Assembly: GCF_003334405.1 (NCBI RefSeq)
Contig: NZ_QOWM01000001.1
From: Escherichia coli
GTDB taxonomy: Bacteria; Pseudomonadota; Gammaproteobacteria; Enterobacterales; Enterobacteriaceae
Direction: 5' to 3' (one strand)
Length of the DNA stretch: 64,000 bases
Part shown: positions 5,891 through 6,106 of the stretch, piece after piece
How the letters are laid out: each line of letters starts with the position of its first letter
Numbering within the stretch: position 1 is the first letter of the stretch
Program-made: the position numbers and the translations under genes
The notes under the pieces: generated by a model
What the model saw: the letters and a program-made list of their open reading frames with translations, nothing else
Told to the model about the DNA's origin: nothing
Databases searched by the model: none

Positions 5891-5950
5891 ATCGCAGATA
5901 GCAAAAAAGCGCCTTTAGGGCGCTTTTTTACATTGGTGGGTCGTGCAGGA
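5891..5950. repeat. 60-bp direct repeat, copy 1: terminator hairpin plus last 17 nt of tRNA-Lys (no full tRNA)
   Basis: Appears identical to 6047-6106 by manual comparison; after ...tggtgggtcgtgcagga the sequence diverges from tRNA-Lys. Confidence 0.6.
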
Positions 5951-6046
5951 TGACTCGCTTCGCTCGCCCTTCGGGCCGTCGCCGCGAGCGGCTCCGTTGT
6001 TTCGCTGCGCTCAACTCAAACCTGCTGCAGGTTCGAATCTTTGAGT

Positions 6047-6106
6047 ATCGCAGATAGCAAAAAAGCGCCTTTAGGGCGCTTTTTTACATTGGTGGGTCGT
6101 GCAGGA
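6047..6106. repeat. 60-bp direct repeat, copy 2: lysV terminator plus 3' end of the intact tRNA-Lys
   Basis: Same 60-mer as 5891-5950; overlaps the 3' end of tRNA-Lys at 6090-6165. Confidence 0.6.

Follow-up and report, generated by a model that had tools for sequence, protein, structure and literature searches.

Introduction

RtT RNA (RF00391) is described as an RNA released from the transcripts of tyrT and of other tRNA operons. Where they cite Bosl and Kersten (1991), several reports (PMC4986893, PMC7542023, PMC2965389, bioRxiv 10.1101/2024.07.17.603846) carry the suggestion that it modulates the amino-acid-starvation response, and in the same passages its function is called still unknown. 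These reports propose no other function for the family than a modulation of the stringent or amino-acid-starvation response by the tyrT RtT RNA. The conserved structure of RtT RNA has covariation support from CaCoFold (PMC7657543). Strains of Erwinia pyrifoliae differ in RtT copy number and position (PMC7542023), and some REP/BIME-related elements have been said to resemble the rtT transcript (PMC2965389). The current version of the CoCoNuT preprint no longer mentions RtT (PMC10542128).

The window analysed here is a stretch of 64,000 nt of Escherichia coli DNA (assembly GCF_003334405.1, contig NZ_QOWM01000001.1) in which the 3' end of a tRNA-Lys gene is duplicated. The original prediction had offered a footprint of site-specific integration (attL/attR), unequal crossing-over or a small structured RNA as readings of this duplication. 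Many att sites of tRNA-targeting integrases take in the tRNA gene from the T-loop to its 3' end. The 3'ETS-leuZ RNA, which lies before the terminator of its operon, has defined sRNA targets. We report here that the feature of the window is very probably one 156-bp RtT unit located behind lysV, the last gene of the valU tRNA operon, and that copies of this unit probably recombine homologously.

Results

The tRNA-Lys tail and its terminator are repeated behind lysV

A repeat search of the window revealed a perfect direct repeat in two copies (61 nt, 100% identity, 5891-5951 and 6047-6107), which start 156 nt apart and enclose a unique segment of 95 bp (5952-6046). Each copy joins the final 18 nt of tRNA-Lys(UUU) to a 43-nt trailer with an intrinsic terminator, and the perfect repeat extends over 61 bp because this trailer follows the real tRNA end as well as the copy of its tail. 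The duplication of the tRNA-Lys end and terminator that had been predicted is therefore real, with lengths that needed correction: each copy is one base longer than the 60 bp given (5891-5950 and 6047-6106), the spacer is 95 and not 96 bp, and the part of tRNA-Lys in the repeat is 18 and not 17 nt when the ARAGORN ends of the gene (6090-6165) are used. The 18-mer at the tRNA 3' end, ATCCTGCACGACCCACCA, has exactly two occurrences in the 64-kb window, where 0.05 would be expected by chance. In the trailer, AAAAAAGCGCCCTAAAGGCGCTTTTTT folds into a 13-bp hairpin followed by a U run, in agreement with the downstream terminator hairpin that had been recognized in both copies. The inverted T-arm-like fragment seen in the spacer was also recovered, as a stretch antisense to the T-arm (6027-6039) that is 100% complementary to 6105-6117. 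No ATG-initiated ORF was present in the 95-bp segment. All features of the locus are summarized in Table 1; the same one-unit arrangement was also found in MG1655.

Table 1. Features of the lysV locus in the window and of the short RtT units in the lysT operon of MG1655.
Feature	Position	Strand	Evidence
xapR, convergent neighbour, last gene of the variable xap region	4941-5825	plus	RefSeq annotation of identical DNA
Distal 61-bp repeat: tRNA-Lys 3'-end copy 5934-5951 (3' end of the RtT unit) and second trailer	5891-5951	minus	
Distal terminator hairpin, 78 nt past the xapR stop codon	5903-5929		inverted-repeat arms; fold
RF00391 (RtT RNA) match	5934-6059	minus	cmscan, 46.7 bits vs gathering score 45
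RtT core, 95 bp, GC-rich	5952-6046	minus	RF00391 alignment; tyrT/lysT-operon alignment; fold
RtT core part: GAGCGAAGCGAGTC	5952-5965	minus	
RtT core part: GGCCCGAAGGGC	5966-5977	minus	
RtT core part: hairpin	5978-5994	minus	
RtT core part: linker	5995-6013	minus	
RtT core part: 5' hairpin with antisense T-arm 6027-6039	6014-6046	minus	
Proximal 61-bp repeat: tRNA-Lys 3' end (18 nt) and 43-nt trailer	6047-6107	minus	repeat search, 100% identity
Proximal terminator hairpin AAAAAAGCGCC-CTAAA-GGCGCTTTTTT, between tRNA and RtT core	6059-6085		inverted-repeat arms; 13-bp MFE hairpin
tRNA-Lys(UUU), lysV position; last 18 nt (6090-6107) in the proximal repeat	6090-6165	minus	ARAGORN; Rfam tRNA 79.2 bits
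tRNA-Val(UAC), sole Val gene of the valU operon in the window	6169-6244	minus	ARAGORN; Rfam tRNA 65.9 bits
Promoter-like site, TTGACT-16-TATAAT, 11/12 matches	6262-6289	minus	consensus scan
gltX, on the other side of the tRNA genes	6503-7918	plus	
Short RtT units in the lysT operon	record L008 631-730, 920-1017, 1224-1321, 1446-1544		

The segment behind lysV is an RtT unit

In a scan with Rfam 15, the RF00391 match spanned the full model (positions 1-130), and the threshold was passed only narrowly. At the equivalent position, RefSeq annotates an "RtT sRNA" ncRNA in S30, an MG1655 assembly, S1-IND-01-A (twice), strain 53 and TW10828. The RF00391 match and this annotation both speak for the small structured RNA that had been considered. 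The unit starts at 6089, directly behind tRNA-Lys and on the same strand, and its 3' end is the CCA-ending, exact 18-nt copy of the tRNA-Lys tail. When aligned with the tyrT and lysT units, it displayed the conserved core motifs of the family (hairpin, GRCCCGWAGGGYGA, hairpin, GAGTMATCC). The core common to the window, to the four tyrT-locus units and to four lysT-operon units of MG1655 reads ...ACG.CCCG.AGGG.GA...GA.T.ATCC and is followed, depending on the locus, by the tail of tRNA-Tyr or of tRNA-Lys. By eye, this core at lysV does not look like the E. coli REP consensus.

The tyrT-tyrV locus of MG1655, where the family was founded, contains four RtT units scoring 133-138 bits, against 46.7 in the window. 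The annotated end of MG1655 rttR is the CCA copy that closes the first tyrT unit and coincides with the end of the Rfam match (record L005 1067). The lysV unit resembles rttR in its place just after a tRNA gene of the same strand, in being tandemly repeatable, in its core ...ACGRCCCGAAGGGYGA...GAGTMATCC, in a 3' end that copies the upstream tRNA tail with its CCA, in a 5' hairpin of antisense and sense T-arm fragments and in an open frame equivalent to tpr. It differs from rttR by its lower score, by a tRNA-Lys instead of a tRNA-Tyr tail, by an outer closing stem that is not formed and by a length of 156 nt that includes an intrinsic terminator, behind which the core lies. The open frame is arginine-rich and crosses the core on the minus strand (5931-6017, ...AAKQRSRSRRRPEGRAKRVILHDPPM) with no ATG start; it corresponds to the 29-aa "protamine-like" tpr ORF of the tyrT RtT (...RCRRQRPEGRSAQR).

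The lysV copy is a weak member of the family. Its outer RF00391 stem is flagged by cmscan for non-canonical pairs, only GAU/AUC being able to pair, and a local 5' hairpin folds in its place; the hairpin before GAGTC is down to about 2 bp, and the core folded with the tRNA tail alone had an unremarkable stability (z = -1.5). The z of -6.0 obtained with the whole unit would come largely from the two terminator hairpins. As to the stem-loops that had been attributed to the spacer, the local 5' hairpin was found, with no unusual stability of core and tail.

RNAalifold applied to a MAFFT alignment of 32 cores returned only two invariant hairpins, the variable hairpin being misaligned, and hairpins were therefore counted sequence by sequence. 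By this count, GGGYGA and GAGTMATCC enclose a hairpin of at least 3 bp in 41 of the 53 distinct cores, and its complementary stems come in about 15 different pairs. Ahead of GGCCC, most units have a hairpin built from CGTTGC/GCAACG, the lysV type one from GCCG/CGGC and a single genome one from GCCA/TGGC. In many units, a 5' stretch is complementary to the tail copy and gives a closing helix, for example in Tyr units (GGGGAAGGAT/ATCCTTCCCC), Arg units (GGGAGGAT/ATCCTCCC), Pro units (AGAGGAT/ATCCTCT) and short Lys units (CGTGAAGGAT/ATCCTGCACG). When this 5' antisense strand was compared with tRNA probes by the longest exact match, a crude measure, the cognate tRNA was outright best only for the Tyr and Arg(ACG) units; by the same measure, Lys units did not track their cognate tRNA and Pro units tied with non-cognate probes. 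We therefore claim cognate tracking for the 3' tail only.

The lysT operon contains related units and an identical module

In the lysT operon of MG1655, a shorter RtT-like unit carrying the same 18-nt tRNA-Lys tail stands behind each of lysT, lysW, lysY and lysZ. These spacer units are Rfam RtT matches (54-60 bits) and share with the lysV unit the tail copy and the core GGCCCG(A/T)AGGGCGAG...GAGTCATCC. Unlike the lysV unit, they are of a short form (about 100 nt), have neither terminator nor antisense/sense T-arm hairpin, and are closed by a 10-bp helix. They would be transcribed with the operon because they lie between its tRNA genes. The GAAGGAT part of CGTGAAGGAT in these short units is nearer to the Tyr form than to the Lys T-stem GCAGGAT and leaves an A-G mismatch; it may point to descent from a unit of the Tyr type.

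The end of the same operon is organized as lysQ, terminator, RtT core, tail copy and terminator (record L008 1578-1845). Over about 270 nt, from the tRNA through ...TTTTTTGCTAT, this lysQ module matches the window with 100% identity, and the lysQ and lysV loci of MG1655 are about 1.74 Mb apart. The distal repeat copy measures 54 nt at lysQ vs 61 at lysV.

The number of units at lysV varies between strains

Aligned lysV alleles contained no unit in EC11, one in the window and in MG1655, and two in S1-IND-01-A. From one allele to the next the length changes in register by exactly 156 bp, and a single 61-bp copy is present in the empty allele; empty sites with a single repeat copy were observed in EC11, C41(DE3) and O157. 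Differences in such an exact register point to homologous recombination between the repeats and not to site-specific integration, in line with the unequal crossing-over that had been envisaged.

The distribution of these alleles was surveyed in 5,426 complete E. coli genomes with 161-nt junction queries, a place being counted if at least 80% of the query was covered. The unit was present at lysV together with the variable xap region in 1,913 cases and with no xap region in 390; the site was empty in 2,175 cases with the xap region and in 956 without it. The four classes sum to 5,434 for 5,426 genomes and are therefore nearly exclusive and exhaustive, and the census of the 5,426 complete genomes left no class for an island at the tRNA-Lys/flank or distal-repeat/flank junctions. 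The unit thus occupies lysV in about 2,303 genomes (~42%), and the site is empty in about 3,131 (~58%). The arrangement is accordingly neither universal nor unchanged in E. coli, and what varies is the unit itself, not an island. The 95-bp core was found somewhere in 3,383 of the 5,426 genomes, about 2,040 having none.

The module was found at lysQ in 2,782 of the 5,426 genomes (~51%). Approximate arithmetic gives the module at both sites in about 1,700 genomes, at lysV only in about 600, at lysQ only in about 1,080 and at neither in about 2,040; presence at the one site varies independently of presence at the other. Against the 2,303 + 2,782 occupied lysV and lysQ sites, 5,446 places with the core were counted, which bounds the extra tandem units at a few hundred places.

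These alleles also bear on the proposal that the repeats are attL and attR, left by a mobile element that integrated into lysV between the T-loop and the 3' end, the 95 bp being a remnant of this element. Like the attL/attR of tRNA-gene elements, the block of identity starts in the T-loop and covers the tRNA 3' end, and empty alleles have exactly one repeat copy; in addition, the boundary of the variable xap region (homology with xap-negative strains from 5888) lies 3 nt outside the distal copy. However, an empty allele with one copy is equally expected from the collapse of a tandem repeat, and the xap region is not enclosed by the repeats and its presence is independent of that of the unit, all four combinations of presence and absence being found. 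The repeat also runs 43 nt past the tRNA and takes in a terminator, tandem two-unit alleles exist, and neither integrase nor any other mobile-element gene is present nearby, where the neighbours are xapR and xapB to one side, the tRNA genes with gltX to the other. Finally, the segment between the repeats has no foreign cargo: it is the conserved core of a chromosomal family, found behind Lys, Tyr, Arg and Pro tRNAs in many genera. We thus consider an integration scar very unlikely, and this part of the original prediction was abandoned.

An error in the assembly could in principle also create a duplication, and the window, apparently collapsed at other tandem tRNA genes, does have one tRNA-Val and one tRNA-Ala vs 2-3 and 2 in the complete genomes examined, as well as a Val-Lys spacer identical to that of valZ-lysY. 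Nevertheless, about 2,300 complete genomes, and MG1655 as well, have the identical one-unit arrangement, which excludes an artefact for the feature itself; we give this explanation practically no weight. Homologous recombination of an RtT unit remains the preferred reading.

RtT units follow other tRNA genes in other species

A scan with the motif GCRACGRCCCGWAGGGYGA, with one genome per species and at least 120 loci, gave at least 146 matches, and for at least 66 of these a tRNA gene was found upstream, no further than 400 nt away and on the same strand. In most of the latter cases, the 3' end of that tRNA reappears as an exact copy of 16-19 nt, 12-24 nt past the motif. Among the matches listed, the tRNAs ahead of RtT cores were Lys(UUU), Tyr(GUA), Arg(ACG) and Pro(UGG/CGG), and the matches came from Citrobacter, Enterobacter, Klebsiella, Pluralibacter, Siccibacter and Pseudescherichia as well as from Superficieibacter, Acerihabitans, Hafnia, Brenneria, Gilliamella and E. 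albertii.

Lys modules with a terminator and a period of 154-156 nt were observed in Klebsiella sp. BIGb0407, Citrobacter sp. FP75, Enterobacter sp. MGH 24, Mixta and an unclassified proteobacterial MAG, and the antisense/sense T-arm palindrome is kept in the Lys modules of these genomes. Klebsiella sp. BIGb0407 has three consecutive Lys units, that is four tail copies in 156-bp steps. The conservation of the Lys module in other enterobacterial genera indicates that the module is old, and the empty E. coli sites would most simply be losses.

More than 20 dispersed matches to the core motif (GCGACGGCCCGAAGGGTGA...) were present, among the matches listed, in Alcanivorax sp. 24 (L063-L077) and Alloalcanivorax xenomutans (L106-L111). 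None of those listed lies beside an ordinary tRNA gene or has a tRNA tail copy, and they apparently represent a different interspersed repeat family with the same motif.

Predicted transcription of the lysV unit

The trailer hairpin has the features of an intrinsic terminator (GCGCC-CUAAA-GGCGC extended by A/U pairs, then UUUUUU). The proximal hairpin was not listed by a simple consensus terminator scan, although folding shows it, the T run probably being taken up by the stem. As the hairpin is symmetric, it is potentially bidirectional, and from its position and symmetry (A run, stem, T run) the distal terminator is probably also where the convergent xapR transcript stops. A single hairpin would serve both the xapR and the tRNA transcripts in strains with no RtT unit.

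In the consensus scan, the RtT unit had no promoter-like site of its own, and the sole site on the tRNA strand was the one upstream of tRNA-Val, whose position suggests that it is the promoter of the tRNA operon. At lysV, a strong terminator separates tRNA-Lys from the core, in contrast to tyrT and to the interior of the lysT operon, and transcription of the core is therefore predicted to occur only by read-through. Transcripts from the valU promoter that read past the first terminator would contain the RtT unit; such an RNA would then end at the second terminator or, by analogy with rttR at tyrT, might be trimmed to the CCA copy.

It has to be considered whether this read-through RtT(Lys) RNA, with its CCA end and anti-T-arm stretch, is a functional sRNA that acts in trans, for example on tRNA processing or the starvation response. 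Klebsiella, Citrobacter, Enterobacter and Mixta all retain the 154-156-nt module together with its antisense/sense T-arm hairpin, some of the changes being compensatory (GCCG/CGGC vs GCCA/TGGC), and the 13 nt antisense to the T-arm are perfect. RtT-family RNAs were seen on Northern blots in Actinobacillus (PMC4986893), and passages of PMC4986893 and PMC7542023 link the tyrT RtT to the starvation response after Bosl and Kersten (1991). On the other hand, the unit is missing at lysV in ~58% of E. coli genomes and the core is missing altogether in about 2,040; where present, it stands behind a strong terminator with no promoter-like site of its own found, and its closing stem and one hairpin are degenerate. 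Like 3'ETS-leuZ, the lysV unit is located downstream of the last tRNA of an operon and could be released by tRNA processing; unlike for 3'ETS-leuZ, we know of no target, Hfq binding or expression. A trans-acting RNA at lysV is thus possible and not supported, and we judge it unlikely. The RtT unit is probably dispensable at lysV.

Other observations in the window

The window has a single tRNA-Val (6169-6244) and a single tRNA-Ala (8944-9019), vs 2-3 Val (valU/X/Y) and 2 Ala (alaX/W) genes in the complete E. coli genomes examined. The Val-Lys spacer is CTC, as at valZ-lysY of the lysT operon, and is CTTC at valY-lysV of MG1655. A short-read assembly that is collapsed or chimeric could account for the single Val and Ala genes and the CTC spacer, as could a true recombinant.

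The yfeN-xapA-xapB-DUF1427-xapR block (about 1500-5888) is replaced by a 342-bp FlxA-like gene in 1,346 of the 5,434 classified cases (~25%); no integrase was found at the xap-region junction at 5888. In E. coli O157:H7 SS TX 313-1 (L011 9990-11631), an IS200/IS605 tnpA remnant and TnpB (InsQ) lie between gltX and yfeD; this insertion is absent from the window.

A tRNA-Arg(CCU) gene at the argW position (49113-49187, minus strand) is directly adjacent to dsdC and dsdX (48076-49187). Within the window, neither a second copy of the argW 3' end nor an integrase was found, and the argW site, which we take to be a classic prophage site, appears unoccupied.

Discussion

The element behind lysV is of an already catalogued and annotated kind, real but ordinary. 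From the allele structures, we infer that the 61-bp repeats serve as substrates for homologous recombination (or slippage), by which units would be deleted and duplicated. Gene conversion between lysQ and lysV could re-seed lost units and keep the copies identical, the partners having a common 76-nt tRNA upstream and a copy of the terminator downstream. Deletion, duplication and conversion between the two loci would together produce the patchy presence and absence observed.

A wider reading would make RtT units modules derived from the 3' half of tRNAs that have spread between tRNA genes via T-loop recombination and been kept cognate, possibly as decoys of tRNA ends. Each unit would have a cognate 3' tail and often a complementary strand, so that its RNA would mimic an acceptor/T-arm end; processing nucleases, the CCA-adding enzyme or the stringent-response machinery could be the targets of the decoy. 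That the same core comes with cognate tails after Lys, Tyr, Arg and Pro tRNAs is compatible with this scheme, as are lysQ and lysV modules that are identical though distant and independent in their presence. We nevertheless put it forward as a speculation that is improbable in this full form.

As a discovery, the lysV unit carries little weight: the element is in Rfam and is annotated by the NCBI pipeline at this very position. Several side results are of use for the unexplained biology of RtT, namely the occupancy of lysV (~42%) and lysQ (~51%), the identity of distant modules and the tail rule. More generally, a duplicated tRNA 3' end is not always the scar of an integration; in enterobacteria, it is the signature of an RtT unit.
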